Below are positions 2,006 to 61,680 of a stretch of 64,000 nucleotides of DNA, in pieces. The notes under the pieces are model-generated. The model saw nothing but the letters and a program-made list of their open reading frames with translations. It did no database searches and was not told the origin of the DNA. The stretch is from the NCBI GenBank assembly GCA_964634875.1, contig CAZWKA010000002.1:79590-143589 (forward strand), read 5' to 3'. A program made the translations under genes and the position numbers. Source of the stretch: an uncultured Gammaproteobacteria bacterium. GTDB taxonomy: Bacteria; Patescibacteriota; Patescibacteriia; Magasanikbacterales; GWA2-37-8. The first letter of the stretch is position 1, and each line of letters opens with the position of its first letter.

Positions 2006-2008
2006 AAG

Positions 2009-2737: not shown

Positions 2738-2742
2738 ATAAT

Positions 2743-3936
2743 TTAGTTAACACGATATTTTAACTTCCATTCATCTCCTACTTTTTCCCACAAGTGCGGC
2801 GAGCGGTAGGAATCAATGACTTCCCAAAAACGCTGTTCAGAAATATTGAGGTACTCCAAAAAATCTTTAAAATACTTTTGAGGGAATTCACCGTCGTACC
2901 GTTTGACCAAAGCAACACCTTCTTCACGGGTTAGGTGGCCAGAGCGGATTTCCATCATCGCATCGCGCGTGGCACGACCCAAACCAAATTTAATGAAGCC
3001 AAGATACCAATGGAAACCATCGGTCTTATCGTCCAGGCTAGCATATTTCGAATAGGTGCCTTCAGAGCGCCCCGTCGCGTTGGTTTCAAAGCCAGTATGT
3101 TTTGAAGCGTAATAAAAATTTTCTTGCGGCACCCATTTTTTGTAATACGACATCCAGTGCATTTGGATCCCCACTTTCTCGATTGCATCGAGGCTAGGGG
3201 GACGATAGAGCTCAAAAGTTTTTTCTTCTACTTCGCCTGGTTCAAAAATGCCACGCTCGAGCCCGGCCTCAACGAGCTTATCAACGCCCGCACCTTTAAA
3301 ATACAAACGCTCCCAGTCTTTGACTGATTCATAGGGCTTGTTGGCGTTTTCCATTGAACCGCCGTATTCAGCTTCACCATTTTCACCGTAGAAAATAAGT
3401 GGGATATTAAATTTAAGGGCGATATGGAAGGCATAGGCCTTTTGACCAAAGGTAAAAGGCTCCCAGGCATCTCCCTTAAGCTCAAAAGCGACCCGGGCAA
3501 GCTTGCGGTGAAGGACACCGTTTTGGAAACAGGTCATCCCGGTAAACCCGGATTGGATGAAATTGTTATAATTCTTAAAACCAATATCTGTATACAAAAA
3601 AGGCGCCCAGGTAACCACCAATGGATGCATCCCATACTTAGTTTTCAGGATGTGGGCGGTATACCCACTATCCTTACCACCGCTCCCGGGCACTACAACG
3701 TCGAAACTACCATCTTTAGATCGGTGCTTATCAAGGAGGGCGACCAATTCGGTTTCACGCTTTTCCCAATCGATGCCATTGTTTTTATACTCAGCATACT
3801 GGCAGGCGGCACAAACACCCACCTCATTGAATGTGATGCGCGGACGCTGGTTTGAAACCACACATTTGGTACAATAAAAAACTTTTTCGGATTGCTCTTT
3901 GAGCTGCTGATCAAGATTAGTAGCCGAAACACTCAT
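2743..3936 (-). CDS. N-acetyl sugar amidotransferase (WbuX/PseA family, PP-loop ATPase)
   Basis: PP-loop motif VVPGSGGKDSGY and a Cys-rich N-terminus (CTKCVVSNQRP...CAAC). The 397-aa size is typical. It lies immediately upstream of HisH/HisF paralogs, as in WbuXYZ and acetamidino-nonulosonate clusters. Confidence 0.65.
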   Translation of the reverse strand: MSVSATNLDQQLKEQSEKVFYCTKCVVSNQRPRITFNEVGVCAACQYAEYKNNGIDWEKRETELVALLDKHRSKDGSFDVVVPGSGGKDSGYTAHILKTKYGMHPLVVTWAPFLYTDIGFKNYNNFIQSGFTGMTCFQNGVLHRKLARVAFELKGDAWEPFTFGQKAYAFHIALKFNIPLIFYGENGEAEYGGSMENANKPYESVKDWERLYFKGAGVDKLVEAGLERGIFEPGEVEEKTFELYRPPSLDAIEKVGIQMHWMSYYKKWVPQENFYYASKHTGFETNATGRSEGTYSKYASLDDKTDGFHWYLGFIKFGLGRATRDAMMEIRSGHLTREEGVALVKRYDGEFPQKYFKDFLEYLNISEQRFWEVIDSYRSPHLWEKVGDEWKLKYRVN

Positions 3937-3940
3937 ACAA

Positions 3941-4582
3941 TTAGAATTTAGAAACTAAGGTACTAAAATTTTTAATAATAGCCAGGCCATCGGTGGCACT
4001 TTTTTCCGGATGGAATTGCGCCCCATACATATTACCAAAACGCACGACTGCCGGGAATGTATAGCCCCCATAAGTTGTGGTTGCCAACACGTTTTTTTCT
4101 TCGGTCGGCTGCATGATATAGGAATGGACAAAATAAGCATACACGCCTGGCTCCAAACCTTCGAGCACTGTATCACTCCACGATACACCCGTCGGCTTAC
4201 TAACCATATTCCAGCCCATGTGGGGCACCTTTTCACTATTCTCAAGCAGCGGAAAGGCAACTACCTGACCAGAAATAAGACCCAGGCCAGGAAAAATTCC
4301 GAGCTCCCGACCTTCGCTAAACAAGAGCTGTGCACCGAGGCAAATACCAAGCACGGGCTTACCAGAAGCTCCAAAAGCCCTCACAACATCAACTAGGCCC
4401 CGGGTAGTAAGTCCGTGCATGCCAGCACCAAACGAACCAACGCCGGGCAACACCAAAGCATCGGCATTCGCAAGGACAGTGGGGTCATCAGAAATTACTG
4501 GAGCAACACCAACTTCCTCAAAAGCCCGTTTTAAGCTTTTAAGGTTGCCGACCCCATAGTCAATAATAACAATACTTTTCAC
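3941..4582 (-). CDS. HisH-like glutamine amidotransferase subunit (WbuY-like; glycan-pathway paralog of imidazole glycerol phosphate synthase)
   Basis: Class I GATase motifs (GICLGAQLL catalytic Cys; HSY...HPEKS). 213 aa. There is a 4-bp overlap with the HisF-like gene. No other his genes are nearby. Confidence 0.7.
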   Translation of the reverse strand: MKSIVIIDYGVGNLKSLKRAFEEVGVAPVISDDPTVLANADALVLPGVGSFGAGMHGLTTRGLVDVVRAFGASGKPVLGICLGAQLLFSEGRELGIFPGLGLISGQVVAFPLLENSEKVPHMGWNMVSKPTGVSWSDTVLEGLEPGVYAYFVHSYIMQPTEEKNVLATTTYGGYTFPAVVRFGNMYGAQFHPEKSATDGLAIIKNFSTLVSKF

Positions 4583-5346
4583 AGGATTCGTACGTTAAGC
4601 CCTTGTTCTTTAAGATACTTTTTAACATCCCCAATGGTATAGTCAGTATAATGGAAAATAGATGAAGCGGCTACCGCATCAACTGCGGCCCTGGAAACAG
4701 CTTCTACCATGGACTCGGGACCGCTCGCGCCACCATGGAGCACGACCGGAACTTGAGCAAAACCAGTGATCTGGCGGGCAAGCTCAAGATCATACCCACG
4801 ACGCGTGCCGTCAAAATCTATTGAAGTCAGAAGAATTTCACCGACCCCTAAGGCCAGACCTTGCTTGATCCACTCTACAACATTCCGCCCGCTCAGCTCA
4901 CGGCCTCCATCGGTATAGGCCTCCCAACCACCGTCGGGCTGGCGCATGGCTTCGACTGATAAGACTATACACTGCGAACCAAACTCAGCGACTGCTTCAC
5001 GCAAAAATTCCGGATGATGGATGGCGTGTGTATTTATAGCCACTTTATCTGCCCCTGCACGCAGGACATTGTTGATATCCTGGATAGTTCGTATACCGCC
5101 GCCGACAGTAATAGGAATAAAAATACCTTCAGTAACAGACGACAACTGGTCAAAATCAATATTGCGCTGGTACAGGCTCGCCACAATATCCATGTATATG
5201 ATTTCATCCGCGCCTTCGTGGTAATAACGCTGCATGAGTGTTTTAGGGTCGCCAACAATACGCAAAGCTTCGGTTTGCACCGGCTTAACGACATGAGGAC
5301 CCTTGATATCAAGACGAGGGATGATGCGGATGTTTTTCATTGGCAA
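4579..5346 (-). CDS. HisF-like cyclase subunit (WbuZ-like)
   Basis: (beta/alpha)8 HisF signatures ([10 protein letters not shown]; VGGGIRT; LHGGASG). 255 aa. It is coupled to the HisH-like gene. Confidence 0.7.
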
Positions 5347-5401: not shown

Positions 5402-6253
5402 TTATAAAGACCAGGTCAAGAGAATAATACCGCCAATTAAAATACTGGCGATACAAACCTTAAAAACCACATTTATTTCTTTGAAGTAAAATCGTCCTGT
5501 CGCTATTGACCAGAGCACTGCTGAGGAGCGCCGAGCAGCAATGATGACAGAAGCTGGCGCAAACACATACGCAAAGCTATCAACTACTCCAGTCACCCCC
5601 GACAAGAATGCTTGAAAAATAACTATTGGTTGCCGGAGCGAGTGCCACGGTCGCTCTTTAGCGCGGAGCAAACTACCCACAGTGAAATAACCGACTATAC
5701 AGATATAAACGAGCAACTGCTCGGCGACCACTGAATTATAATGGGCGATATCGTATTTAAACAAACTAATCGTTACCGCAGCTAAGACCGTGCTAAGGAC
5801 CGTTAAACCAACTCCTGCGCGTGTTATGGTTTGCCTTGAAAAAACCAACACCAGCGCAACTATAATCACACCGATACCTGCCAGATGATAGGTTGTAAGC
5901 TGGTAACCCAACATCCAGTCAATACCAAGCACAAGTGGAATCGTGCCCACACGAATAAAACTAAAAGTACTACGGTCCGCAATGGTTATGGCCGCCCGTG
6001 AAGTATGTGCCAGCACCATTTCCAAAAATACCCGCAGCGTAAAAAAAGGCAAAGAAGCCGAAGAGAACAAGAACGTTTCATGTTTGATAAGAGCGATAGC
6101 TAGAAAAAATACTGCTGCCGCGGATGATTGGATCCAGCCGAACGTATAAATACTATAGGCTTTTTTACTCACCCGATCTTTTCCAATAGCAGCACTGAGT
6201 TCTTCTAAAAATGTGCTAATTGCGGTTAAGAGAACTCCCCACATAGGTACCAT
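5402..6253 (-). CDS. EamA/DMT-superfamily membrane transporter
   Basis: About 10 predicted hydrophobic helices arranged as two repeated halves. 283 aa. No soluble domains. Confidence 0.5.
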   Translation of the reverse strand: MVPMWGVLLTAISTFLEELSAAIGKDRVSKKAYSIYTFGWIQSSAAAVFFLAIALIKHETFLFSSASLPFFTLRVFLEMVLAHTSRAAITIADRSTFSFIRVGTIPLVLGIDWMLGYQLTTYHLAGIGVIIVALVLVFSRQTITRAGVGLTVLSTVLAAVTISLFKYDIAHYNSVVAEQLLVYICIVGYFTVGSLLRAKERPWHSLRQPIVIFQAFLSGVTGVVDSFAYVFAPASVIIAARRSSAVLWSIATGRFYFKEINVVFKVCIASILIGGIILLTWSL

Positions 6254-6276: not shown

Positions 6277-7251
6277 CTAGGTATTCTTGGCCTGATATGC
6301 CGCTTCGAGTACCATTAATTTTTTGTAATTTTCCGGGCTGGCCAGGGTTTTTATCTCTGCAATTTTACTTTCCTTTGCTTTGGCCGACTCTGCATTAGGT
6401 AGTCGTTCACGTACCAAGATCTGGGCCATTTCAGCGGTGACCGGACGGTTTAAAAATTTCTGCAATTTTTTAACAAGCTGGTTAGGATTAGCTAGTATTT
6501 CTTCGTACCTAACCGAAAGCATTTTGGCTTTCTGGCTTGGTGATAATTTTTTGTAACTTGCGCGGCTACGCTCCATCAAGGTTGTAATCGACATAATCAC
6601 TCGGTCCATTTCACTGGCCTTGGCATAACGCTTGGTTTGGCCGGCTATATACCACGGGTACGGGCCGCTCGCGTCTTTAAAAGGAATGATAAATAATTTA
6701 GGGTCGTCCCCGAGGCGCTTAGCGAGCCCACGCTTATACCATGATGCAACGAGCTCTACCGGGCTACGTTCCAAACTAACGACTTTGATACCTGGAAATG
6801 TTTCTAAGTATACTTTAATATTTGGCATTAACTCATGCAAAATAAAAAAACTATACGCCTTACTTTTATAAAAACGTTTGAGCGCCTCGTCACCATCCGG
6901 CTCTTCACCGCGGTGCAAATATTTTTCAGGTTCCGGAACATTATAAATCGAAGATTTGTCACCCCGGCGATGGTTAAGGGTGCGGCCAATAGCCATTTCA
7001 TAACAATGTGTATCGATCTCACATCGTAAAAGCTCTTTCGCAACTTCTTTGGTTAAAAAACCACTTTCCAATAAAAAAGGGATGTGTTCTAAAAGGCCAT
7101 GATATTGAACAGGCTCAATCCCGGACAACCCATTTAAAATATTAGCTAACAAAAATTTTCCAGAGCGAGAAATTCCCTCAACGATAAGCAGGTCTTTTAC
7201 TAACGGAGTGCGTGATCCAAGTCTTAACGACACCTTTTTTTTTGCGGGCAT
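6277..7251 (-). CDS. PAPS-dependent sulfotransferase family protein
   Basis: P-loop-like 5'-PSB region (GISRSGKFLLANIL) and a 3'-PB-like motif (ERSPVELVASWY, resembling RxPxDxxxSxY). It is flanked by cysQ, cysC and sat. 324 aa. Confidence 0.5.
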   Translation of the reverse strand: MPAKKKVSLRLGSRTPLVKDLLIVEGISRSGKFLLANILNGLSGIEPVQYHGLLEHIPFLLESGFLTKEVAKELLRCEIDTHCYEMAIGRTLNHRRGDKSSIYNVPEPEKYLHRGEEPDGDEALKRFYKSKAYSFFILHELMPNIKVYLETFPGIKVVSLERSPVELVASWYKRGLAKRLGDDPKLFIIPFKDASGPYPWYIAGQTKRYAKASEMDRVIMSITTLMERSRASYKKLSPSQKAKMLSVRYEEILANPNQLVKKLQKFLNRPVTAEMAQILVRERLPNAESAKAKESKIAEIKTLASPENYKKLMVLEAAYQAKNT

Positions 7252-7256: not shown

Positions 7257-8093
7257 TTAACTGCTTAAAGAATAAAAATGACGGATCGCTTCAATAAGCC
7301 GATTATGCAAAACACCATTAGTCACCACAATCCCCTCTGGATGTTTGACTACGGCCGTATTATACAACAAAGGTTGGCCGCGCGTATCGGTTATAGCACC
7401 ACCAGCTTCTGTAATCAAGCAATGTCCAGCGCTGGTATCCCACTGGCTAATATGACGCGTAAAAGAAAAATAAATATCAGCACTACCACGTGCTAATTCA
7501 GCTATTTTAAGTCCGCAGCTGCCGGTTTGTTTCTCACTTCCTAATCCCAATGTTCCTAAAAATTCTTTTTCTGCAGCGCTTAAGTGGTTCCGGCTTACCA
7601 ATGCCTCAGCTACATTAAAATCGTCGGTCTTACTTACCCCTATTTTACTTAGTTTATTATCTTGAACAAGAAAAGCGCCTCTTCCTTTTTCTGCTATAAA
7701 ATAACGTTCGCGGGCTGGCTGGTACACAATACCAATAGCGGGAATACCATTATCAACTAAACCAATAAGCACGGTAAATTCGTCATTATGGTCGATAAAA
7801 TCCTGCGTACCATCGATTGGGTCGACAATCCAGACCTTCTCAGCATTAAGACGATCTGCTGAGTCAGCCGTTTCTTCGGATAAAATTGGATAACCGGAAG
7901 TATTTAGAATTTCTGAAATTACCTGGTTACTTGCCACATCAGCTTCGGTTACCGGGCCTTCATTGTTTTCTTTTTCACGCACTGAAAAATCACGGGCGTA
8001 TATTTCCCGGATGCGGATGCCCGCAGCTTCCGCCGCAGTAAGAGCGAGCTGGCAATCCGGGCTGAATTGTCCTTTAAAAGCCTCAGAAATCAT
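7257..8093 (-). CDS. cysQ: 3'(2'),5'-bisphosphate nucleotidase CysQ (inositol monophosphatase family; PAP phosphatase)
   Basis: IMPase-family metal-binding motifs (EE...WIVDPIDGT; WD). 278 aa. There is a 4-bp overlap with cysC. Confidence 0.7.
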   Translation of the reverse strand: MISEAFKGQFSPDCQLALTAAEAAGIRIREIYARDFSVREKENNEGPVTEADVASNQVISEILNTSGYPILSEETADSADRLNAEKVWIVDPIDGTQDFIDHNDEFTVLIGLVDNGIPAIGIVYQPARERYFIAEKGRGAFLVQDNKLSKIGVSKTDDFNVAEALVSRNHLSAAEKEFLGTLGLGSEKQTGSCGLKIAELARGSADIYFSFTRHISQWDTSAGHCLITEAGGAITDTRGQPLLYNTAVVKHPEGIVVTNGVLHNRLIEAIRHFYSLSS

Positions 8094-8617
8094 AGGCGAC
8101 CACTGGCTTCCAAAAAAGCCAGTAATTTTTTAATACTTTCGTCCGGGCTTTCGCCCGTAGTTTTAATTTCAATTTCAGGATTGAGCGGTGCTTCATAAGG
8201 ATTACTAACACTTACTCCAATAAGATTTGTCAGTTCGCCTGACGCGGCTTTCGCGTACAGCCCTTTAGTGTCACGGGCAACGCATTCTTCGAGAGGGCAG
8301 TTAACATACACTTCAACAAAATCAGGGCCTATTTTTTGGCGGGCGGCTTGCCGGTCTTCGCGGTAGGGAGAAATAATGGGTGTAATAATAAAATCATATT
8401 CTACCACATGCCCAACAGCGAGCTCGGCAATCAGGCGGTTATTCTCACGGATATCTTCACGGGTGAAACCCAGGTGTTTATGAAGCGTGTCACGCACGGT
8501 GTCACCGTCAAAAAGAATTACTTTTTTCCCTATGGCCATTAATTTTTCTTTTAGGCCATTTGCAATCGTTGACTTGCCAGAACCGCTTAACCCTGTAAAC
8601 CAAAGTACTGTTGCCAT
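8090..8617 (-). CDS. cysC: Adenylyl-sulfate kinase (APS kinase)
   Basis: Walker A motif LWFTGLSGSGKST and an LDGDTVR-type motif (LFDGDTVRDTL). 175 aa, canonical CysC length. Confidence 0.85.
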   Translation of the reverse strand: MATVLWFTGLSGSGKSTIANGLKEKLMAIGKKVILFDGDTVRDTLHKHLGFTREDIRENNRLIAELAVGHVVEYDFIITPIISPYREDRQAARQKIGPDFVEVYVNCPLEECVARDTKGLYAKAASGELTNLIGVSVSNPYEAPLNPEIEIKTTGESPDESIKKLLAFLEASGRL

Positions 8618-8621: not shown

Positions 8622-9953
8622 TTATTTATTAGTATCTTGGACAGCCACTTGGTTGGTTTCCTCAGGATTGGTAGACAATAATGGCCAACCTTTGCTTAGA
8701 ACAAATCGGAGCCATAAGCCAGCCGCCTGCGAAGTTACTATGGCTGTAATTACCAGGGTCGTATAAAAAGCAGCACTAATTATGCCTGCTTCATAGGCAA
8801 CGCTAGCGAGCACGATACCAGGACCCCCTCGGGCATTAGTGGTAATGGCTAAGTTTAGAATATCCAATTTTTTGAATCCAGCCAGTCGAGCCGCAAACCC
8901 AACCGAGACGAGGGCAATCAACGATGAACCCAATAAAAAAACAACCAATAATCCAAAAGAAAAATCGCGGTCAAATACTAAACGATACCCTACCAGGGCA
9001 AAGTAAATAGGGATAAAAATAGCGAAAGAAAACTTACTGATGGCGTCCAAGGCATCGGCATAATGCTCCCGCTGTCCTCCAATAATACCACCCGATATCC
9101 CAAATCCAGCTAAGAAAGCTGCAAATACCAAATTGACTTCTAGATAGGCCGCGAGGCCGACATACGCAAATAAAATAAAAAGCACATAGGCCGGCACGGA
9201 AGCTTTATAGAGAATGTTCCAGCGTACGCTACGCAAACTTCTCATCAACCTAGGCATGAGAACCAACGCTGACGCCATGTAGATCGCTGTAATAATGATG
9301 TGAGCTGTGGTGGATCCAACCACACTACCTTCGACAAAGTCATTCGCCTTAGTCAGCGCAGCAGCCACTGCCAGCACGCCCCAAAGAGCAATATCTTCTA
9401 AAACCGCAGAACCTAGTATGAGGCTGGCAAAACGAGTGTGTAATATATTCAAATCGTGGAAAATGCGGGAAATAACTGGAATAGAAGTTACCGCTACCGC
9501 ACTCGCGAGAATTAATAAGGCAGCATTCTTAACTCCAGCTGCACCCACCAACGGATCAAGAGGAATTACAGAGAATAAACCCAGTGCCAAAACGAGAAAA
9601 AAGGGTAAGGGTGTACCAATACCAAGCAACCAAGCGGTTTCACGGCGATTCTCTTTAGAAAGCAATCGACGGACCTGGCTCCCTGAAATAAACATGAGAA
9701 GGAGCACACCGAGCCAGTAAATAAATCCAAGGACTATTGAAGTTTTCTGCCCGAGGGCAGGGTTTTGAAAGAGAAAGCTAAACACAGTTGGGGCAAAACG
9801 GCCGAGCACAAAAGGACCCAAGAGAATACCGGCGAGTATTTCTCCTACCAGACGAGGTTGGTGTAACCGTTCAAAGATATAACCCAGAACGTGCACTGCA
9901 GCCACAAATATACCGAGCGTCAGGACAAATAAACCAACTTCTACTTCAGACAT
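8622..9953 (-). CDS. Cation:proton antiporter (Na+/H+ exchanger, CPA family)
   Basis: 443-aa polytopic membrane protein. The N-terminus is typical of the Na_H_Exchanger family (GEILAGILLGP). It sits between cysC and sat on the same strand. Confidence 0.6.
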   Translation of the reverse strand: MSEVEVGLFVLTLGIFVAAVHVLGYIFERLHQPRLVGEILAGILLGPFVLGRFAPTVFSFLFQNPALGQKTSIVLGFIYWLGVLLLMFISGSQVRRLLSKENRRETAWLLGIGTPLPFFLVLALGLFSVIPLDPLVGAAGVKNAALLILASAVAVTSIPVISRIFHDLNILHTRFASLILGSAVLEDIALWGVLAVAAALTKANDFVEGSVVGSTTAHIIITAIYMASALVLMPRLMRSLRSVRWNILYKASVPAYVLFILFAYVGLAAYLEVNLVFAAFLAGFGISGGIIGGQREHYADALDAISKFSFAIFIPIYFALVGYRLVFDRDFSFGLLVVFLLGSSLIALVSVGFAARLAGFKKLDILNLAITTNARGGPGIVLASVAYEAGIISAAFYTTLVITAIVTSQAAGLWLRFVLSKGWPLLSTNPEETNQVAVQDTNK

Positions 9954-10000: not shown

Positions 10001-12256
10001 CTACTCGTCTTTTACAAAGACCTCTTCTCCTTGCTTTAGCGCATCAACGATCATCTGCGAAATTTCCGGACGCATAAACCATTCCGGAGGCAACTCACCT
10101 TTTTCAAGCATCTTGCGCGCTTCTGTTCCACTGATCTGCATCTTCTCTTCTTCAGAGTGCTCCTTGTCCCCCGCCTCATGGACGTGAGACTGTAATTTTT
10201 TGGAGTAAAAAATCTGGTTAAATCGGACCGGGACGATTCCTAAGTCAGGGAATTGGTCAAAAATCTCATGCGAAGCAGTTGGAGCATAGAAGGCACCAAC
10301 ACCCGTGTGGTCGCGGCCAATGATAAAATGGCTGCACCCAAAATTCTTACGACAAAGCGCCGTAAAAATAGCTTCCTTGGGTCCAGCATAGCGCGAGAAG
10401 GTGCTATACGCCGCAAAAACAGCTTTATTCTTCGGATAAAAATACTGAGACATCATTTCGTAAGCGCGGATTATATATGGTGCGTTAAAGTCCCCGGCTT
10501 TTTTCTTACCAATTACCGGATGGACGAATAAACCATCACACGCTTCCTGTTCTAGGGCTTTAAGCTGGATGAATTCATGGCTGCGATGGATGACGTTGCG
10601 GGTATGAAAACCAACCACCCGGCTCCAACCGCGCTCTTCAAACAAGCGGCGAACTTGGGCTGGGGTCAGCTCGTATTCCTGTGTAGGAGTTTTGCGGCGC
10701 TCAATAAGATCAATCTTCCCCGCTACAAATATTGGTTTCATGTTGCGAACTCGCCGAACTCCCGGATGGTCGGCGCTATTTGTCCCATACAGCTTGGTCG
10801 CAAAATTTTCTAAGTCAAAAGCATAGGTTTCGCTTACGCGAAGGAGTGCGCGATCGCTACCATCAACACCTTTCAAAAGCACTGTATCACCAATTGAAAT
10901 ATTTTTTGCTTCTTCTTCGGAAATATCCAGAACAATCGGAATCGGCCAAATTATACCGCTTGACAGGTGCATTGTGTCGAGGACGCTGGTGACATCGGCT
11001 TTGCCCATAAACCCTTCGAGTGGGCTGAAGGTACCAACTCCCAGCTGTTCAACATCCATATCCAGGTTTTCATCAAGCTGAATGGTGGTCATTTTTTCGA
11101 GCTCTTCTGCAACGGGTTTTTCACGTAACTGACGGTTCACGAGTTTTCCACCGTGCGGCAGTACCAACGACGACGACGACGTAAAGTCAGTGAGATACCC
11201 TTCTGGTACGAGCAGTGTTTCTACTTGTTCAAAAAGCTTCAACGATTTAGTATCTACTGTCTCGTCAACGTGACGGATAACCTTGTTCATCACATTTACT
11301 GTCTCCATAGGGAATTTCCCAATAGCCGTTTCAGCCGACAGAGCTAAGCCGCTCGCACCATCGAGTAACGTATTCACAATATCACAAATTTCCGCGCGGG
11401 TTGGTTTGGGTTTTTCCACCATTGTTTCAAGCAGGTTGGTAGCCACATACACGGGCTTACTCAGCTTGCGAGCTCGCTCCATGATAACTTTTTGCGTAAA
11501 AGGTATCCGTTCAATACGGATTTCTTTGCTCAGGTCTCCACGGTCGATGAGGATCGCGTCGCTGGCCGCAATAATCTCGTCTAGATTCTCTAGGGCATCA
11601 GTACATTCAATTTTGGAAATAATTTGCATCCGATTTTCCGAGGCCCGCGCAACCTCCTTGACTGAAGCCGCATTTCTCATAAATGAAGCGGCCACATGTC
11701 CAATCCCCTCTTTAAGACCAAGTGCAATCGATTGATAATCTTTTTCGGTGAGCGGAGGTAATTTAAAAACTTTGTTGGAACCGGAATCGATAACTACGCC
11801 TTTATTACGCCCGATCGAGCCGGCAGTGATTGCGGTAGCAGTAATATATCCTTCGGCACAGGTGGAGGTATCTGACACTTTTAAAACCAGCGTGCCAAAG
11901 TCTATATATACCAAATCCCCCGGACTTAACTGTTCAATGATCGAACCAGGTTTGAGGGTTAACACATCTTTGTTGCCCAGAATTTGGTCCGTAGTTAATT
12001 TAATCAAAGCATTTTCCTCTAAAAAAATTTCTTTCTCACCCAGGTCACCGGTACGGATCTGTGACCCTTCAGTATCGATAATAAAGGGAATACCGACTTT
12101 TTTTGCGAGTGCGATAAAGTAATGCAAGTCTTCCACGGTGGAATGCGACATATTGACGCGGACGAAAGCAACGCCCTTGGCCTTCAAAAAACGGAGGTCT
12201 TCTTCGGTGCGTGTCGCTGGACCAAGTGTGGCGATGATCTGAGTTTTTTGTTGCAT
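10001..12256 (-). CDS. sat: Fusion protein: pyruvate-kinase-like catalytic domain (N-terminal) fused to ATP sulfurylase / sulfate adenylyltransferase (C-terminal)
   Basis: Residues 1 to about 335 carry pyruvate kinase barrel and B-domain motifs (IIATLGPAT, RVNMSHS, DTEGSQIRTG, ISKIE, DRGDLS, ATNLLETM, PTRAE, SAETAIGKFP). The pyruvate kinase C-terminal allosteric domain is absent. From about residue 345 there is a full ATP sulfurylase (HTRNVIHRSHE, AGPKEAIFTALCRKNFGCSHFIIGRDHTGVG). Confidence 0.8.
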   Translation of the reverse strand: MQQKTQIIATLGPATRTEEDLRFLKAKGVAFVRVNMSHSTVEDLHYFIALAKKVGIPFIIDTEGSQIRTGDLGEKEIFLEENALIKLTTDQILGNKDVLTLKPGSIIEQLSPGDLVYIDFGTLVLKVSDTSTCAEGYITATAITAGSIGRNKGVVIDSGSNKVFKLPPLTEKDYQSIALGLKEGIGHVAASFMRNAASVKEVARASENRMQIISKIECTDALENLDEIIAASDAILIDRGDLSKEIRIERIPFTQKVIMERARKLSKPVYVATNLLETMVEKPKPTRAEICDIVNTLLDGASGLALSAETAIGKFPMETVNVMNKVIRHVDETVDTKSLKLFEQVETLLVPEGYLTDFTSSSSLVLPHGGKLVNRQLREKPVAEELEKMTTIQLDENLDMDVEQLGVGTFSPLEGFMGKADVTSVLDTMHLSSGIIWPIPIVLDISEEEAKNISIGDTVLLKGVDGSDRALLRVSETYAFDLENFATKLYGTNSADHPGVRRVRNMKPIFVAGKIDLIERRKTPTQEYELTPAQVRRLFEERGWSRVVGFHTRNVIHRSHEFIQLKALEQEACDGLFVHPVIGKKKAGDFNAPYIIRAYEMMSQYFYPKNKAVFAAYSTFSRYAGPKEAIFTALCRKNFGCSHFIIGRDHTGVGAFYAPTASHEIFDQFPDLGIVPVRFNQIFYSKKLQSHVHEAGDKEHSEEEKMQISGTEARKMLEKGELPPEWFMRPEISQMIVDALKQGEEVFVKDE

Positions 12257-12266: not shown

Positions 12267-13799
12267 TTAGACTTGAGTCAAACCAACCTTTTTGGCCAGG
12301 AGGTCGACAATCGGGATAAGCTGGGATTTTTTTGCACCCAACACTTGCGAGCCGCCTTCAGTGTCCCAAATTAGACTAAGATCAAGGTCAACACTTTCGG
12401 CATATATCGCCGCGATGAAATTAACTAATTCATCATGATTATACTTAAAATTACGAAGCTGTTCTTTGACTAGGTCGGGCAAAAGATTGATGTCGCTACA
12501 TGTCTTAACCATGGACAGGCGATTATAAAAAACTTTACCAAACACAATGGATGGTTTTTTACACATGGCTGCTTCAAAACCAGCGGTGCCAGTTACAGCA
12601 AGCACCAGCTTGCTTTGAGCAATAATATCGAGGCTATTTTCGACCGAATTAAGCAAGCGGACGTTGGGTAATTTTTTGATTTTGGCGTAAAAATCGCGGG
12701 TGCGCTTACCCATCATCCGCGGATGGTCTTTAACATATAATTTATAGGTAGCAGGTAATGATTGCGAAGCCTGCTCTACAAGCCATGCTTGATCTCGATA
12801 AAAGGGCGCGAGGAGCATGGGCAGTGCTTCTGGTTCGCTGTGAAGTGAAAAATAGGCATACACATCACCAGCAGCAGGCTTATCATAAAAATCACTATAA
12901 CCACGCAGTACCCGGACTTTATTTTTTACCTTATCAATGACATGGTGCCAGGGCTTGATAGTGCTATAATCGCTCGAATGCGGATTCGTGAAATATTCAT
13001 AAAACAAATGGCCGAGCCAATAGACGGAATGAAAAATTTTACCCGGATTTAAAAAGGCAAAATGCTTGCGCCGCATAGCTACCGAATTGGCATACGTATT
13101 GGCCGCTGCAGAGGCAGTGCCGTAGTAAGTTGGCCGTTCTTGGAACGAGGTAAGATATTTAACCGACTGCTCATTAAAAGCCTGGTCGCTCGGCAAAAAC
13201 TGTCCCGATGAAAAACGTTGAAAAGCCGCTTCAAGGTCAGGGAATTCATCGTATTTTTCAGTGATACTGTACTTATTTTCCACTCGCGGACAGAAGAACA
13301 TGGTCGTTTTAATGCCCTTCTTTCTGGCAATATGGAACAAGAGCATACTGCTTAAATTGGAAACGACAGAAAAAAACACAAAATCGGGCTTTTCTTCATC
13401 GAGAAAACGGATAATTGCTTTGGCAGTCACCTGAACAATGCGCAACAAGTCCTCGTGCGAATACTGCGGGGTATCCGATGGAAAACCGCGGAGTAAAAGA
13501 CCGTAGCGTAAAATCCGGTCCATATTGATGTACGGCCAGAGTGTCGGCAAACCATATTCTTTTTCGAGCCAATCAATATAAGCCGTATCGAGTTTTTCAT
13601 TTTTATATTCAGCGTAAATATCCTCTTCTAGAATAAGCTTGGTGTAGGTAAAGTCTGTTTGGTTCTGTAAAAATTCAAAGCTGGAACGTAAATTAACCAG
13701 GCCACAAAAATCAGTAATGCCATAGTGCTCCCTTAAAATAAGCGCCATGGAATGACCGATAAGCGCAAAACGACGTTGCAAGAAAAAACACGCTTTCAT
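12267..13799 (-). CDS. Capsule-polysaccharide-biosynthesis family protein (KpsC/KpsS-like, putative glycosyl/Kdo-type transferase)
   Basis: 510-aa soluble protein with no TM segments. Its size and features resemble the Capsule_synth family. The assignment is tentative and made by resemblance only. Confidence 0.35.
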   Translation of the reverse strand: MKACFFLQRRFALIGHSMALILREHYGITDFCGLVNLRSSFEFLQNQTDFTYTKLILEEDIYAEYKNEKLDTAYIDWLEKEYGLPTLWPYINMDRILRYGLLLRGFPSDTPQYSHEDLLRIVQVTAKAIIRFLDEEKPDFVFFSVVSNLSSMLLFHIARKKGIKTTMFFCPRVENKYSITEKYDEFPDLEAAFQRFSSGQFLPSDQAFNEQSVKYLTSFQERPTYYGTASAAANTYANSVAMRRKHFAFLNPGKIFHSVYWLGHLFYEYFTNPHSSDYSTIKPWHHVIDKVKNKVRVLRGYSDFYDKPAAGDVYAYFSLHSEPEALPMLLAPFYRDQAWLVEQASQSLPATYKLYVKDHPRMMGKRTRDFYAKIKKLPNVRLLNSVENSLDIIAQSKLVLAVTGTAGFEAAMCKKPSIVFGKVFYNRLSMVKTCSDINLLPDLVKEQLRNFKYNHDELVNFIAAIYAESVDLDLSLIWDTEGGSQVLGAKKSQLIPIVDLLAKKVGLTQV

Positions 13800-16357: not shown

Positions 16358-17461
16358 ATGTCGGACAAAAAAATACCGTGGTGGTCTCCGGAAATGGGAC
16401 AGGAAGAACAAAGGTTGGTTAAGGAAGTCCTGGACAGTAATTATGTTAATGAAGGTAAGTTAGCTTTAGAATTTGAACAAAAGATTGCTGATCGGGTTGG
16501 TGCCAAATACGGTATCGTAACCACGAGCTGTACAATTGCTATTTTTTTGGCCTTAAAAGGCCTGGGAGTTGGCAAAGGTGACGAAGTCATCGTCCCTGAC
16601 ATGACGTTCATTGCCACAGCCAATGCCGCTGAGTTAACCGGCGCCACACCAATATTGGTCGACGTCGACCCTGCTACACTTAACATGAGCCCAGAAGCTT
16701 TCCGTGCGGCCATCACCCCACGCACCAAAGCTGTTGTGCCAGTACATGTTACCGGACGAGCTGCTGACCTTAAACGTATTATGGAGATTGCTGCCGAGCA
16801 CAATATCCTGGTGGTTGAAGATGCAGCCGAAGCCCTAATGTCAAAACACGAAGGAAAATACTTAGGTACTTTTGGCAAAGCAGGCTGCTTTTCTTTTTCA
16901 CCGAATAAAACAATCACGACCGGACAAGGCGGTATCGTTGTTACCGATGACCCCGAACTCAATATCCGTATCCGCGAACTCAAGGATCAGGGTCGCCCGC
17001 AACGCGGCAGCGGTGGTAACGACCTCCATAATACCATCGGGTACAACTTTAAATTCAGCAACCTGCATTCGGCAGTTGGTTTAGGGCAACTTACCTACCT
17101 CGACCAACGCATCAAACGCCAACGCCGAATTTACGAGATCTACCGTGATAATCTTAAAGATGTTCCGGAAATAACCCTCTACCCCTGCGACCTGGAAGGC
17201 GGTGCCGTACCACAATGGACGGATATAGCGACTGATCGCCGCGACGAACTTGAAGCTTATCTTCAAACAAAAAATGTTGATACCCGGAAATACTGGTACC
17301 CCTTACATACCCAACTCGCTTACAAAGAAGGTGATGAACGCTTTCCCAACAGCACCAAGACATCTCCCCGATCACTCTGGCTTTCTTCGGCCTACAGCTT
17401 AAGCGATGAAGACGTGCTCATGGTCTGTGGACATATTAAAGATTTCTTCAGAACAACCTAA
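16358..17461 (+). CDS. DegT/DnrJ/EryC1/StrS-family PLP-dependent sugar aminotransferase
   Basis: The family is recognisable throughout (GDEVIVPDMTFIATANA; FSFSPNKTITTGQGG with the PLP lysine region; LHTQLAYK). 367 aa. Confidence 0.8.
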   Translation: MSDKKIPWWSPEMGQEEQRLVKEVLDSNYVNEGKLALEFEQKIADRVGAKYGIVTTSCTIAIFLALKGLGVGKGDEVIVPDMTFIATANAAELTGATPILVDVDPATLNMSPEAFRAAITPRTKAVVPVHVTGRAADLKRIMEIAAEHNILVVEDAAEALMSKHEGKYLGTFGKAGCFSFSPNKTITTGQGGIVVTDDPELNIRIRELKDQGRPQRGSGGNDLHNTIGYNFKFSNLHSAVGLGQLTYLDQRIKRQRRIYEIYRDNLKDVPEITLYPCDLEGGAVPQWTDIATDRRDELEAYLQTKNVDTRKYWYPLHTQLAYKEGDERFPNSTKTSPRSLWLSSAYSLSDEDVLMVCGHIKDFFRTT

Positions 17462-17583
17462 ACTCGTTAGGCGCGTGAGCTGCGCACCAAAACTGATTGG
17501 CTGCTGACGAAACATGGACCCAGACATTCATAAACCTGGCCAAGCAGCTAATTTTTTGTTAGCCAATTGGCGCCAGAATTTGT

Positions 17584-17612
17584 TTGACAATAAAGTAAAA
17601 ACTCACTATAAT
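17584..17612 (+). promoter_or_regulatory. Consensus sigma70 promoter (TTGACA-N17-TATAAT) upstream of the MBOAT/SGNH genes
   Basis: Perfect -35 TTGACA (17584-17589), a 17-nt spacer and a perfect -10 TATAAT (17607-17612), about 25 nt upstream of the MBOAT ATG. Confidence 0.6.
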
Positions 17613-17637
17613 TTGAGCGTTTGCTTTATAGTTTCGT

Positions 17638-19086
17638 ATGCTCTTCAACTCACTGCCGTTCTTTATCTTTTTTCCCACCGTTACTGCCCTCTACTTTGTT
17701 TTTCCCCACCGCTTCCGTTGGATCGTGCTCTTAACTGCCAGCGCGATTTTTTATATGGCCTTTATACCGGCCTATCTGCTTATTCTTCTTTTTACCATAG
17801 TTATTGATTACATAGCAGGTCTACTCATTGAAAACGCAACAGGTAAAAGAAGGCTTTTATACCTGATTATAAGCCTTGTCTCTAATATCGGCATCCTCAC
17901 TTTTTTTAAATACTTTAATTTTTTTTCAGCCAGCCTCACAAGCATTGCGCACCTTATCCATTGGAATTACAGTTTTCACCTCTTATCAATCATTCTTCCG
18001 GTGGGTCTTTCGTTCCACACCTTTCAAGCCTTAAGTTACACAATCGAGGTTTATCGCGGCCAACAAAAAGCCGAGCGCCATTTGGGAATTTATGCTTTAT
18101 ACGTCATGTTTTTTCCGCAGTTGGTAGCAGGCCCCATTGAACGTCCGCAGAATTTAATCCATCAATTTAAAATTCACCACTCATTTGATTGGCAACGCGT
18201 CGGTTCAGGCTTACGATTGATGCTCTGGGGCTTTTTTAAAAAGATCGTCATTGCTGATAATGCTGCAGCAATTATCAATCGTATTTTTGATTATCCTACC
18301 CAGTTTACCGGGTTGCCACTTATTATTGCAGCCATCTTGTTTACCTTTCAACTCTACTGTGATTTTTCAGGATATTCAGATATCGCAATCGGTTCAGCTC
18401 GAGTTCTCGGCTTTCGACTTATGAAAAATTTTGACCAACCTTTTGGCTCTAGAACATTGCCAGAATTTTGGAGAAAGTGGCATATTTCCCTATCGACCTG
18501 GTTTCGCGACTATCTCTATATTCCACTCGGAGGAAATAGAGTACCACCATTACGTCACTACTTAAATCTCCTCATTATTTTTACTATAAGCGGTTTATGG
18601 CACGGAGCAAATTGGACCTATGTAATCTGGGGCTGCTTGCACGGTTTTTTTATGATATTTTCAACCGCCACAGTGCGCATACGGCAAAAGCTTATACAGC
18701 TTTTCAAGCTCGAACGCTTTCCGCGTTTTCATCACATCTTACAAATGTGCACTACTTTTTCCCTCGTAGTAACTGCTTTTATTTTTTTCCGAGCTAACAC
18801 AACCAGCGATGCGTGGCACATAATTACACACCTCTTTGCAGATTTTAATTTTACATTTTCTAAGCTATTGAACGCACTAGGAACAAGTTCATTTAATTTT
18901 ATCCACCTCCTCACGGCGATAGCGTGTATGGAGATAATTACCTGGGCTGCACGACAAAGTCGTCTTAAAAGCGCTTTTATTAGCACTCCACTCTGGATGA
19001 AGATATCAGGTTATACAACCATAGTATTATGGATCATTTTCTTTGGTTACTTTGGTGAACGGCCTTTTATCTACTTCCAGTTTTAA
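17638..19086 (+). CDS. MBOAT-family membrane-bound O-acyltransferase (AlgI/DltB-like)
   Basis: 482-aa polytopic protein with the MBOAT signature (WRKWHISLSTWFRDYLYIPLGGNR) and the conserved His region (GLWHGANWTYVIWGCLHG). Confidence 0.8.
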   Translation: MLFNSLPFFIFFPTVTALYFVFPHRFRWIVLLTASAIFYMAFIPAYLLILLFTIVIDYIAGLLIENATGKRRLLYLIISLVSNIGILTFFKYFNFFSASLTSIAHLIHWNYSFHLLSIILPVGLSFHTFQALSYTIEVYRGQQKAERHLGIYALYVMFFPQLVAGPIERPQNLIHQFKIHHSFDWQRVGSGLRLMLWGFFKKIVIADNAAAIINRIFDYPTQFTGLPLIIAAILFTFQLYCDFSGYSDIAIGSARVLGFRLMKNFDQPFGSRTLPEFWRKWHISLSTWFRDYLYIPLGGNRVPPLRHYLNLLIIFTISGLWHGANWTYVIWGCLHGFFMIFSTATVRIRQKLIQLFKLERFPRFHHILQMCTTFSLVVTAFIFFRANTTSDAWHIITHLFADFNFTFSKLLNALGTSSFNFIHLLTAIACMEIITWAARQSRLKSAFISTPLWMKISGYTTIVLWIIFFGYFGERPFIYFQF

Positions 19087-19104
19087 ACTATTCTACGCTT
19101 TGGT

Positions 19105-20325
19105 ATGTCCAACTTTTTTTTACACTTCAAGTACGTACATCACATAGCCCTTAGTTTACTTTTCCTGAGTTTACTCCTTCTTGGTATCGAGGGTCTGCTG
19201 CGCCTTAAGGTCGGGACAGCACACATTGATGACATTGGATATATTAAAAAAAATGGGCTGGTTTTTCTAGAACCTAACGCCGATCGAGTGGTTACCGGTG
19301 GCAACTTTCAGCCTATCCACGTGGTAACGAACGAGGACGGATTCCCAACTCGAAACACAACACTTACGACACCAACAGGCACTATCCGTATCGCGTTTAT
19401 GGGCAACTCTTTTACAAAGGGTTTTGAAGTTGATTACACAAAAAAATTCACGAGTCGCGTCGAGCAACTCATGAACGAGGCTGGCGCCCCCAAGAGTCAA
19501 AAATATGAGGTACTCAATTTTGGTAATGGAGCCTACACTTTTGTCGAGCAATTGTTTATATATGAAACTTTTGTTAAAAAATACCAGCCCCACTATGTTT
19601 TCTTAATTACCTACCCTCCAACCGATCTGTATCGTAACGACCTTTTTAAAAATCACAAGGATTATATACTCAAGACTCCTATTGCCGCGCTGACACCAGA
19701 AAAAGTATCACTAATAAGCACCTCCACTTCTACAACACCAACTTCTACCTGGGAATTAACTCGTTTTAAACGCAGGATTTTATCGGGTATTTCAGAAAGA
19801 ATTAATCGTTTTGAAAACAACTCAAATTCTTTTATAAAAAAGATGCTTTACCCTGCAAATAATCTACTTACCCGCCTGGGTAACATCGATAACGCTACAA
19901 ATCAAAAGGATGGGCAGTTTATCGACCTGACGTTTACCTACATGGATCCTCGCTCACAAGAGGCTGAGGAAGCCATCCTTTTTTCTTCCAAGCTAGCGCT
20001 CAAACTGGGTCAGGCAGTCAAAAAGGATGGAACTCATTTTGGTTTTATAATTATCCCGAACTACTGGCAAGTAGATCCTAAATACAGCGAGAAACTTGCC
20101 GTTGAACAGCCAACCCTTGAACCGGGGCGTTGGAATCGCATGTTTAATGAAACTATTGGCAAAATTTATCCAATTTTAGATTTGTATGAGCTATGTCGAC
20201 GCTCGATTGCCGAAGACCATATACAAATGTTTATTCGAGACACCGGACATTTTACACCAACCGGCCACGAAATAGTTGCTCGTGAAATTCAATCTTTTAT
20301 TACTCAGACATTTAAAACACCTTAG
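19105..20325 (+). CDS. SGNH-hydrolase-like O-acyltransferase partner protein (AlgJ/AlgX/DltD-like)
   Basis: N-terminal TM anchor. A GNSF block (IAFMGNSFTKGFE) matches SGNH block I. 406 aa. It is immediately downstream of the MBOAT gene, the conserved two-component O-acylation arrangement. Confidence 0.5.
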   Translation: MSNFFLHFKYVHHIALSLLFLSLLLLGIEGLLRLKVGTAHIDDIGYIKKNGLVFLEPNADRVVTGGNFQPIHVVTNEDGFPTRNTTLTTPTGTIRIAFMGNSFTKGFEVDYTKKFTSRVEQLMNEAGAPKSQKYEVLNFGNGAYTFVEQLFIYETFVKKYQPHYVFLITYPPTDLYRNDLFKNHKDYILKTPIAALTPEKVSLISTSTSTTPTSTWELTRFKRRILSGISERINRFENNSNSFIKKMLYPANNLLTRLGNIDNATNQKDGQFIDLTFTYMDPRSQEAEEAILFSSKLALKLGQAVKKDGTHFGFIIIPNYWQVDPKYSEKLAVEQPTLEPGRWNRMFNETIGKIYPILDLYELCRRSIAEDHIQMFIRDTGHFTPTGHEIVAREIQSFITQTFKTP

Positions 20326-20369
20326 TATTTTTTATACTTTCCTTGTCAGCGTGACTGGTTTTTGATACG

Positions 20370-57563: not shown

Positions 57564-57569
57564 ACCTTA

Positions 57570-60774: not shown

Positions 60775-60782
60775 TAAAAAAT

Positions 60783-60830
60783 AAAAAAGAACGAAAGGAA
60801 AACTTTCGTTCTTTTTTATTTTTTGTTTTT
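60783..60830. terminator. Bidirectional rho-independent terminator (aagaacgaaag-gaaaa-ctttcgttctt flanked by A and T runs)
   Basis: 11-bp stem and T-run after the repeat-protein gene. The symmetric A-run means it can also terminate minus-strand transcripts from the GC-rich island. Confidence 0.65.
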
Positions 60831-60883
60831 CCAGTAGAAGTTTCTAGCACCTAAGTAAGGTACTAAAAGCTTGGATCTACTGG
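60831..60883. repeat. Structured repeat element copy A (53 nt; terminal inverted repeat CCAGTAGA...TCTACTGG)
   Basis: It lies in the 3' UTR of GC-island gene 1, between its stop codon and the terminator. It is about 88% identical to copy B. Confidence 0.6.
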
Positions 60884-60929
60884 AAAGGAGGAAGAGACGA
60901 CCCAGCCGAACACAGGTTAGACCTGCGTT

Positions 60930-61613: not shown

Positions 61614-61645
61614 AACATGCCTTATTTTTAAGGAACTAACGCCTA

Positions 61646-61674: not shown

Positions 61675-61680
61675 GGTTGT

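Follow-up and report, generated by a model that had tools for sequence, protein, structure and literature searches.

A pyruvate kinase core fused to a complete ATP sulfurylase, found in glycan-sulfation gene clusters: a probable PAPS-supply enzyme with PEP-driven ATP recycling

A single gene in the window (the whole 64-kb stretch of DNA that was analyzed) encodes a 751-aa protein in which the core of a pyruvate kinase (PK) is joined to a complete ATP sulfurylase (ATPS). The protein is probably bifunctional and part of a self-contained module that supplies PAPS for surface-glycan sulfation; its PK half would regenerate ATP from ADP by using PEP. The PK activity, the role of ADP as its acceptor and the kinetic benefit of the arrangement are predicted from architecture, residue conservation, gene context and distribution. 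The features of the gene and of its surroundings are reported in Table 1.

Table 1. Features of the fusion gene and of the neighbouring genes in the window (aa: residues of the fusion protein).
Feature	Position	Strand	Evidence
PK core + PUA-like + ATP sulfurylase fusion gene, 751 aa	10001..12256	-	Single ATG-to-stop ORF; Pfam and NCBIfam matches; AF2 model
PK (beta/alpha)8 barrel with inserted lid (B) domain, aa 3-320	11297..12250	-	PF00224, whole profile (positions 2-328 of 328), E 2.7e-76; about 40% identity to solved PKs
PK lid (B) domain, approximate, aa ~70-166, R68 and K152 at its edges	11759..12049	-	Alignment with the Geobacillus PK 2e28 B domain
Junction, aa 321-366: last barrel helix (its end), an additional helix, linker	11159..11296	-	No PK_C; pLDDT dip
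PUA-like N-terminal domain of ATP sulfurylase, aa 367-520	10697..11158	-	PUA_2 (PF14306), E 9.8e-45
ATP-sulfurylase catalytic domain, aa 527-738	10043..10678	-	PF01747, E 3.8e-77; identity to 8a8d; fold match
CPA2 / Na+-H+ exchanger-family membrane protein, between fusion and APS kinase	8622..9953	-	PF00999, E 8e-38
APS kinase (CysC), ADP-producing step	8090..8617	-	PF01583, E 7.5e-50; TIGR00455, 183.6 (cut-off 138.7)
CysQ-like 3'(2'),5'-bisphosphate nucleotidase, PAP removal	7257..8093	-	PF00459, E 1.9e-54
Sulfotransferase, PAPS consumer	6277..7251	-	Sulfotransfer_1, E 3.5e-8
Capsule-polysaccharide-synthesis-like protein, directly upstream, same operon-like run	12267..13799	-	PF05159, E 2e-8

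The reading frame is unbroken from start to stop in the program-made ORF list, as claimed by the first-pass annotation, and the profile-HMM scan which that annotation had proposed detected all three expected domains: the PK barrel, the PUA-like domain and the ATP sulfurylase. The motifs on which the original assignment was based (IIATLGPAT, RVNMSHS, DTEGSQIRTG, ISKIE, DRGDLS, ATNLLETM, PTRAE and SAETAIGKFP for the PK half, HTRNVIHRSHE and GRDHTGVG for the sulfurylase half) are all found in the translation. The C-terminal allosteric domain of PK had been described as missing and, in agreement with this, Pfam returned no match to PK_C (PF02887) within the 751 aa; the junction occupies its place. 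When compared with TIGR01064, the equivalog of full-length PK, the first half scores 297.9, against a cut-off of 306.4, over profile positions 2-342 of 476, a slight deficit expected because the C domain is absent. The sulfurylase, by contrast with the truncated PK, had been called complete: both its domains match and the curated NCBIfam cut-offs are exceeded (NF003166, 436.1 against 387; TIGR00339, 357 against 322.95). It shares 42% identity with the M. thermolithotrophicus enzyme 8a8d (E 8e-101), and its fold is matched in the PDB with a TM score of 0.94. The whole chain is confidently modelled by AF2 (pLDDT 90.9, pTM 0.90), with the lid domain predicted as beta strands; pLDDT drops to 67-71 at the junction, where neither a stop nor a change of frame is present. 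Searching the PDB with this model recovered the two separate folds and nothing beyond them.

The same order of domains, for which a database search had been suggested, recurs widely: the protein clusters that show it number more than 120, and of the 80 genome loci fetched 73 carry it. The hosts include Patescibacteria, DPANN archaea, Chloroflexota and Planctomycetes, as well as Rhodopirellula and cultured Mesorhizobium, Ensifer and Salsipaludibacter; among the isolates are two strains of Mesorhizobium amorphae and Salsipaludibacter albus, while complete replicons carrying the fusion, from PLSDB, belong to Ensifer adhaerens and Sinorhizobium chiapasense. That the ORF could be a product of chimeric assembly, or two genes merged by a frameshift, was an a priori possibility alone; an uninterrupted architecture in so many independent assemblies, 72 of the loci being single ORFs, in isolate genomes and in complete replicons, together with a model confident along the entire chain, makes this extremely improbable, and the explanation was rejected.

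Conservation was evaluated separately for the two halves. The PK half aligns with 2e28, PykF and PKM2 across aa 1-338, and the catalytic and ligand residues of PK are found at R33, N35, S37, D61, T62, R68, K152, K215, E217, D241, T273 and E309, corresponding to R73, N75, S77, D113, T114, R120, K207, K270, E272, D296, T328 and E364 in PKM numbering. Little or no variation is seen at these positions in 120 homologues (58-84% identity), in the alignment A1 and in 72 fusions from many phyla (38-60% identity). The first reading of the sequence had pointed to the catalytic Lys, Glu, Asp and Thr: these (K215, E217, D241 and T273) align with solved PKs and are invariant in both the 120 close and the 72 distant members. 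The mean pairwise identity is 0.466 for the PK halves and 0.470 for the sulfurylase halves, hence equal divergence, and the pairwise identities of the two are correlated (r = 0.69); both halves are therefore comparably constrained and inherited as a unit.

These data bear on a further reading, by analogy with the APS-kinase-like domain of fungal ATPS, in which the PK half would be a non-catalytic regulator or scaffold, sensing PEP or ADP or mediating oligomerisation. A degenerate fused domain does regulate the fungal enzyme (PMC3728988), and the allosteric C domain of PK has been lost from the fusion. A pure binding module would, however, be expected to lose some catalytic residues, whereas here strict conservation, across identities of 32-84%, extends to the mobile lid domain and to all the catalytic and metal-binding residues, and the PK half evolves no faster than the sulfurylase half. 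We consider a purely regulatory role improbable.

In the sulfurylase half, the active-site motifs are located at aa 551-560 (HTRN-x2-H-x2-H) and aa 647-652 (GRDHTG); RN, HxxH and GRDH-G are invariant across the fusions. The Q of the QxRN motif is replaced by H (HTRN) in 71 of 71 fusions, and the A of GRDHAG by T (GRDHTG) in most of them; relatives consisting of ATPS only have either Q or H at the first position of QxRN. The H-for-Q change sits in the sulfate pocket.

The genes around the fusion have the content of a PAPS-sulfation cluster: an APS kinase, a CysQ-like gene and a sulfotransferase lie on its strand, within 6 kb. The APS kinase gene was found 1.4 kb downstream, where it had been reported at first, and Pfam detects no APS kinase domain in the fusion protein itself. 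For the CysQ-like gene, TIGR01331 is the best NCBIfam match, yet below its cut-off. Homologues of the sulfotransferase adjoin the fusion in loci L008, L014, L017, L019 and L032, and homologues of the capsule-polysaccharide-synthesis-like protein are close to it in L008, L017, L019 and L028. The CPA2-family membrane protein, whose close homologues adjoin the fusion in 8 loci from unrelated phyla, is a candidate sulfate importer. Genes for a DUF5667 protein, an ECF sigma factor and TPR/Wzy_C proteins are also present, a hint of a patescibacterial host; neither the Rfam scan nor the tRNA scan gave a match in the window.

A comparable context was observed elsewhere. Across 38 loci the commonest neighbour family is that of the sulfotransferases, followed by APS kinase, methyltransferases, flippases and glycosyltransferases. 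PAPS/APS reductase and sulfite reductase are absent from the top 25 neighbour families of the fusion loci, and a context of assimilatory sulfate reduction was rejected, the reductase genes not being prominent among the neighbours. A dissimilatory, or reverse, reading of the sulfurylase was rejected as well, the neighbouring genes being wrong for it. According to that reading, the sulfurylase half would form ATP (APS + PPi -> ATP + sulfate), the direction used in dissimilatory sulfur oxidation, and the fusion would be a double substrate-level phosphorylation enzyme. The equilibrium of the reaction does lie strongly toward ATP, with a forward Keq of about 1e-7 to 1e-9 (PMC3728988), but AprAB, Dsr and Qmo are not prominent in the neighbourhoods, where APS kinase, CysQ and sulfotransferases recur; an ATP-forming role is very unlikely.

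The relationship with APS kinase was analyzed in the 73 loci. The kinase is fused to the C-terminus in 14, encoded directly downstream in 20 and located elsewhere in the flank in 9, while none is present within the fetched flanks in the other 30. The order PK-PUA-ATPS-APSK of the triple fusion was confirmed in the protein P0059. A different protein, P0203, is a PK–APS-kinase fusion that has no sulfurylase and carries the same PK signature as the fusion family; it was recovered from two independent contigs, where its neighbours include sulfotransferase and glycosyltransferase genes. This protein links the PK domain specifically to the step in which ADP is produced. A rarer relative, P0133, retains PK_C.

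The PK half might also be a housekeeping glycolytic enzyme merely fused to Sat, with no functional coupling. This would fit with the name 'pyruvate kinase' given by JGI to many members, with the lack of another PK in the window and with the reduced genomes of many of the CPR or DPANN hosts. The gene lies, however, within horizontally mobile glycan-sulfation clusters and not among glycolysis genes, it lacks the allosteric domain that regulates glycolytic flux, and a PK domain fused to APS kinase alone also exists. The fusion is found, moreover, in Mesorhizobium, Ensifer, Rhodopirellula and others, which are expected to have a separate PK of their own. An uncoupled glycolytic role is thus decidedly improbable.

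In the favoured interpretation, PAPS supply with ATP recycling, the C-terminal half would act as a conventional ATP sulfurylase of the homo-oligomeric type (ATP + sulfate -> APS + PPi). The ADP would come from the APS kinase step (APS + ATP -> PAPS + ADP), and the N-terminal half, a predicted competent PK core without its allosteric C domain, would use PEP to rephosphorylate it to ATP. By removal of ADP, APS kinase would avoid a dead-end enzyme-ADP-APS complex, and ATP would stay available; APS would therefore be drained quickly, and its fast drainage would pull the very unfavourable sulfurylase step. The predicted net reaction is ATP + PEP + sulfate -> PAPS + pyruvate + PPi, the three activities being used 1:1:1; the sulfotransferase would then consume PAPS, and CysQ would clear PAP. 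When PAPSS1 makes PAPS in vitro, hardly any product forms unless PK and PEP are supplied to regenerate ATP, since APS kinase is otherwise caught with ADP and APS in a dead-end complex (PMC9885120), and the standard forward assay of the sulfurylase couples ATPS, APS kinase and PK (PMC3728988). The idea that a tethered PEP-dependent kinase could regenerate ATP or remove ADP locally, already put forward in the first-pass annotation, gains support from this in vitro requirement for PK/PEP, from the PK–APS-kinase fusion and from the 34 of 73 loci in which APS kinase is fused or immediately adjacent.

PK cannot pull the sulfurylase equilibrium by itself, because it removes neither APS nor PPi; its coupling to the sulfurylase runs via APS kinase, and any pull is indirect. 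Since ATP and ADP diffuse freely, tethering would bring little kinetic gain in the absence of channelling, and the benefit of the fusion may be just co-expression, fixed stoichiometry and portability in horizontal transfer. Further points against PAPS supply with ATP recycling are the 30 loci with no APS kinase nearby and the presence of invariant substitutions by the PK active site.

These substitutions change DTKGPEIR to DTEGSQIR, ATQML to ATNLL and ARGDLG to DRGDLS throughout the family, and are located beside the K+/nucleotide site and the proton-donor Thr. In rabbit numbering, the derived residues near the active site are E114, S/A116, Q117, D292, S297 and N328. K+-dependent PKs have T113/K114/E117/T120 at the K+ site, and K+-independent ones L113/Q114/K117/LIV120 (PMC8835810, PMC4374775); the fusion family, with T113/E114/Q117/T120 (DTEGSQIRTG), matches neither class, Q117 being found in 120 of 120 and 67 of 67 sequences. 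The derived signature (DTEGSQIR, ATNLL) leaves room for a changed specificity. The PK half could keep PEP as donor while its acceptor (GDP, AMP, a PAP-derived nucleotide or even APS) or its cation dependence has changed. The invariant derived residues adjoining the active site, a K+-site signature outside both classes and the loci with no APS kinase in reach would agree with such a change. On the other side, the residues contacting PEP, Mg2+ and the nucleotide phosphates (R73, R120, K207, K270, E272, D296 and T328) are all unchanged, and the PK domain is both accompanied by and fused with APS kinase, as would be expected if the two had complementary and not redundant roles. A changed acceptor or cation is, on balance, unlikely.

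A bolder proposal, and an improbable one too, would make the PK half a phosphotransferase that depends on PEP and takes part in sulfate activation through a new acceptor or a new chemistry; the strictly conserved E114, Q117, N328, D292 and S297 (rabbit numbering) and the H-for-Q change of the sulfurylase would then mark this new specificity. Examples would be the direct phosphorylation of APS or of another adenylate, or a channelled complex in which PEP replaces the second ATP in PAPS formation. A literature search on sulfoenolpyruvate, as a possible alternative chemistry of PK, gave nothing relevant.

The fusion may be compared with several known systems. In the bifunctional PAPS synthases (human PAPSS1/2, 2gks of Aquifex aeolicus, fungal ATPS with its APS-kinase-like domain) a partner enzyme likewise helps to drain or regulate the unfavourable first step, and the PUA-like and catalytic sulfurylase folds are shared, 2gks being matched by both fold and sequence. 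Many relatives of the fusion also carry a C-terminal APS kinase, as P0059 does, whereas the window protein relies on the separate downstream gene; the partner here is an N-terminal PK core, which would supply ATP and remove ADP instead of consuming APS. Sulfate activation is likewise tied physically to a reaction that releases energy in those ATP sulfurylases of diatoms and microalgae that are fused to a pyrophosphatase, and in the GTPase-coupled CysD/CysN sulfurylase (PMC3728988). Both intervene at the sulfurylase step, the former by removing PPi and the latter by hydrolysing GTP, while PK would act on the adenylate pool and on the product of APS kinase; the fold of CysD/CysN is unrelated to that of the sulfurylase of the fusion. 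With canonical PKs (PykF, PykA, PKM; Pfam PK and PK_C) the fusion shares about 40% identity over the A and B domains and all the catalytic and ligand residues, but it differs by the lack of the C-terminal allosteric/tetramerisation domain, by the derived signature (DTEGSQIR, SKIEC, DRGDLSKE, ATNLLE) and by a location in a glycan-sulfation cluster, not in central metabolism. The same three activities are chained in PAPS cascades and coupled assays in vitro, where PK and PEP remove ADP and regenerate ATP (PMC9885120, PMC3728988); there, separate commercial enzymes are mixed, whereas here the activities are contained in one polypeptide or operon.

None of the papers retrieved in literature searches for the fusion describes it, and the matches on Patescibacteria and Nitrospinota mention PK and Sat separately, never as a fusion. 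That the architecture had not been recognised as a described one agrees with the literature searched; in databases, on the other hand, the family is common under the automatic names 'sulfate adenylyltransferase' or 'pyruvate kinase'. It is undescribed rather than unseen.

Because of these names, the fusion proteins may mislead the metabolic reconstruction of reduced genomes, where they could be miscounted as signs of ATP production by glycolysis, or of sulfate reduction or oxidation. With an active PK half, the fusion would amount to a portable natural source of PAPS that regenerates its own ATP, and to a fourth energetic aid to sulfate activation, beside APS-kinase fusion, pyrophosphatase fusion and GTPase coupling; it could also find direct use in biocatalytic sulfation cascades, for which separate enzymes are now mixed. 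The fusion also suggests that sulfated surface glycans are widespread among Patescibacteria and DPANN archaea, organisms whose cell surfaces are little known.

The gene encoding the fusion is a single ATG-to-stop reading frame without interruption, and all the motif blocks cited by the first-pass annotation were found in its translation. Pfam assigns to it a pyruvate kinase (PK) barrel, a PUA-like domain and an ATP-sulfurylase catalytic domain (see table), and finds no PK C-terminal domain in the 751-aa protein, bearing out the proposed truncated PK joined to a full sulfurylase. By NCBIfam, the C-terminal half exceeds the curated sulfate adenylyltransferase cut-offs, and the N-terminal half falls slightly below the full-length PK equivalog cut-off, since its match covers only profile positions 2-342 of 476. 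Each half belongs to a textbook enzyme family and is an ordinary member of it. Within the 64-kb window no second PK or second sulfurylase was found. The AlphaFold2 model of the whole chain is confident (pLDDT 90.9, pTM 0.90); the two folds occur together in one chain in no solved structure.

Searching about 5.8 billion clustered proteins yielded more than 120 full-length homologues (58-84% identity) in which all three Pfam domains recur, and about 80 full-length fusions, with identity as low as about 32%, were present among 50%-identity cluster representatives. One genome per prokaryotic species was also scanned: at least 600 stretches matched, 597 of 600 were confirmed as relatives, and 80 loci were kept, 73 with PK and sulfurylase and 7 with sulfurylase only. 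The domain order, which the first-pass annotation had suggested looking for elsewhere, is thus a recurrent one. It lies in a single reading frame in 72 of the 73 loci; in the other, on a Woesearchaeota contig (L071), the two parts are overlapping frames, and this split is either genuine or due to a frameshift or sequencing error. An assembly chimera can be dismissed almost with certainty, since the architecture recurs elsewhere.

Hosts among the matches listed are Patescibacteria, DPANN archaea (Woese-, Pace- and Nanoarchaeia), Chloroflexota, Latescibacterota, Bdellovibrionota, Elusimicrobia, Omnitrophota, Verrucomicrobia, Planctomycetes, Nitrospinota, Gemmatimonadota, Actinobacteria and Alphaproteobacteria. 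Mesorhizobium amorphae (two strains) and Salsipaludibacter albus are among the cultured carriers, and the fusion is found on complete replicons of Ensifer adhaerens and Sinorhizobium chiapasense. Archaeal, Chloroflexota and proteobacterial MAG copies are all about 59% identical to the window protein, a pattern that points to horizontal spread.

The PK half (aa 1-338) is about 40% identical to the solved PKs of Geobacillus, E. coli and human. Alignment to these, the check proposed for the catalytic residues, located all those binding PEP, Mg2+, K+ and nucleotide phosphates, and all those for phosphoryl and proton transfer. They are invariant in 120 close homologues and in a 62-sequence alignment (A1), and very nearly so in 72 distant fusions; the PK lid domain is also kept. 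Mean pairwise identity is equal in the two halves (0.466 vs 0.470) and their divergences correlate (r = 0.69), so the PK half is not decaying. A purely regulatory or scaffolding PK half is unlikely, given the strict conservation of all catalytic residues.

Beside the PK active site, fixed substitutions distinguish the family: DTKGPEIR reads DTEGSQIR, SKIEN reads SKIE(C/S/T), ARGDLG reads DRGDLS and ATQML reads ATNLL, with Q117 invariant. The PK half carries every catalytic residue, lacks the C domain and fits neither described K+-site class, its T/E/Q/T differing from both the K+-dependent T/K/E/T and the K+-independent L/Q/K/LIV signatures (PMC8835810, PMC4374775). In the sulfurylase, the QxRN motif is HTRN in 71 of 71 fusions, sulfurylase-only relatives having Q or H at the first position, and GRDHTG mostly takes the place of GRDHAG. 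Being both derived and shared, these characters speak for a single origin of the family. They would also be compatible with some shift in cation or substrate preference, and an altered PK specificity, to which the derived active-site signature would be suited, is given a small chance.

Features of the window, the fusion protein and related loci
Feature	Position	Details
Fusion gene	window 10001-12256 (-)	751 aa
PK barrel	aa 3-320	Pfam, entire profile (2-328/328), E 2.7e-76
PUA-like domain	aa 367-520	Pfam
ATP-sulfurylase catalytic domain	aa 527-738	Pfam
K+-site signature, DTEGSQIRTG	window 12053-12076, aa 61-68	T113/E114/Q117/T120, rabbit numbering
HTRN	window 10592-10603, aa 551-554	sulfate-pocket motif
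GRDHTG	window 10301-10318, aa 647-652	
PK residues	R33, N35, S37	PKM R73, N75, S77
PK residues	D61, T62	PKM D113, T114
PK residues	R68, K152	PKM R120, K207
PK residues	K215, E217	PKM K270, E272
PK residues	D241, T273, E309	PKM D296, T328, E364
Split fusion	L071 6331-8563	
P0059		930 aa, PK-PUA-sulfurylase-APS kinase
P0006		sugar-nucleotidyltransferase ahead of PK-sulfurylase
P0133		859 aa, PK with C domain kept, sulfurylase
P0157		nucleotide pyrophosphatase/phosphodiesterase ahead of PK and sulfurylase; G-to-F change in RGD motif
P0203	L081 3070-4671, L082 1805-3406	533 aa, PK–APS-kinase, no sulfurylase
CPA2 / Na+-H+ exchanger-family protein	window 8622-9953 (-)	directly adjoins fusion
CPA2-family neighbours	L013 12232-13698; L054 12208-13581; L074 12149-13504; L044/L068 12808-14256; L080 12796-14082	
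Last operon gene	window 5402-6253 (-)	283-aa multi-pass membrane protein, no Pfam match up to E = 5
Rest of island, nonulosonic/amino-sugar-type functions	window 52-5346, 16358-21128	two GFO/IDH/MocA oxidoreductases, CMP-sugar cytidylyltransferase, HisH/HisF-like amidotransferase pair, DegT aminotransferase, MBOAT acyltransferase with weak AlgX-like partner, GT2
1241-aa ORF	window 52267-55992 (-)	no Pfam family
Two Wzy_C + TPR proteins	window 45875-47926, 49870-52137	adjoin 1241-aa ORF
ECF sigma factor with DUF5667 protein	window 56220-58151	adjoins 1241-aa ORF
High-GC end	window 60001-64000	GC 0.53-0.55 vs ~0.44 elsewhere
ORFs without Pfam match	window 60930-62654	truncated SAM synthetase at window edge

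Variant architectures among the homologous proteins (P numbers) strengthen the functional link. P0133 is a plausible evolutionary intermediate. P0203 is the most telling: it is found on two independent contigs beside sulfotransferase and glycosyltransferase genes, and its PK half shares 55% identity and the same signature with that of the window, so the PK domain accompanies the ADP-producing kinase even where the sulfurylase is absent. In P0203, and in the short PK-only P0205 and P0246, PTRAE has I, L or V in place of its Arg.

Downstream, on the same strand, the fusion is followed by the CPA2-family membrane protein, APS kinase, a CysQ-like PAP phosphatase, a sulfotransferase and a membrane protein; capsule-synthesis-like and glycosyltransferase/methyltransferase genes lie upstream, and the window from 0 to 48 kb is surface-glycan island throughout. 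Its boundary may lie in the high-GC end. The CPA2-family protein also adjoins the fusion in unrelated phyla, with great similarity across loci (phmmer E as low as 1e-171). It may be a candidate sulfate importer; we know of no link between this family and sulfate transport.

In the 73 loci, APS kinase is C-terminally fused in 14, directly downstream in 20, elsewhere in the flank in 9 and not seen in 30. Pfam families were counted over three genes on each side of the fusion in 38 loci: sulfotransferases rank first, followed by APS kinase, methyltransferases, Wzx-type flippases, glycosyltransferases and sugar-nucleotide enzymes, and neither PAPS/APS reductase nor sulfite reductase is among the top 25. 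Loci without a nearby APS kinase show the same pattern. The fusion thus serves PAPS-dependent sulfation rather than the assimilation or dissimilation of sulfur. A sulfurylase running in reverse, to form ATP, is contradicted by these neighbours and very improbable. It is also decidedly unlikely that the fusion simply carries a housekeeping PK: the gene sits in mobile sulfation clusters, a PK–APS-kinase variant exists, and some carrier bacteria presumably have a PK of their own.

Sulfate activation is very unfavourable (Keq ~1e-7 to 1e-9) and relies on downstream enzymes draining APS (PMC3728988), and APS kinase tends to a dead-end enzyme-ADP-APS complex (PMC9885120). PAPS synthase forms almost no PAPS in vitro unless PK and PEP remove ADP and regenerate ATP (PMC9885120), and the classical forward sulfurylase assay is a chain of ATP sulfurylase, APS kinase and PK (PMC3728988). 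By analogy, the fused PK core would play in vivo the role of the PK added to these reactions, and probably removes ADP and regenerates ATP for PAPS synthesis. Overall this would amount to ATP + PEP + sulfate -> PAPS + pyruvate + PPi, with the activities of the module at matched stoichiometry. Architecture, conservation, context and distribution are the observed basis of this proposal; we infer PK turnover, ADP as acceptor and a kinetic benefit. PK is unable to pull the sulfurylase directly, because it removes neither APS nor PPi, and free nucleotide diffusion restricts what tethering can offer. What is gained may be co-expression and a self-sufficient module, working in any host after horizontal transfer.

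Known aids to sulfate activation by fusion or coupling involve APS kinase (PAPS synthases), pyrophosphatase (diatoms, microalgae) and the CysN GTPase (PMC3728988); PK is not one of these partners. A full-text literature search found no description of a PK-sulfurylase fusion, in agreement with the first-pass annotation, which had not recognised the architecture as a described one. The fusion is real, widespread and mechanistically sensible, yet made of familiar parts. Fusion proteins are named 'sulfate adenylyltransferase' or 'pyruvate kinase' in databases. One study, for example, deduces ATP generation in Patescibacteria from KEGG PK hits (PMC12361377), which may or may not include fusions; reconstructions of the metabolism of reduced genomes could be led astray by such names.
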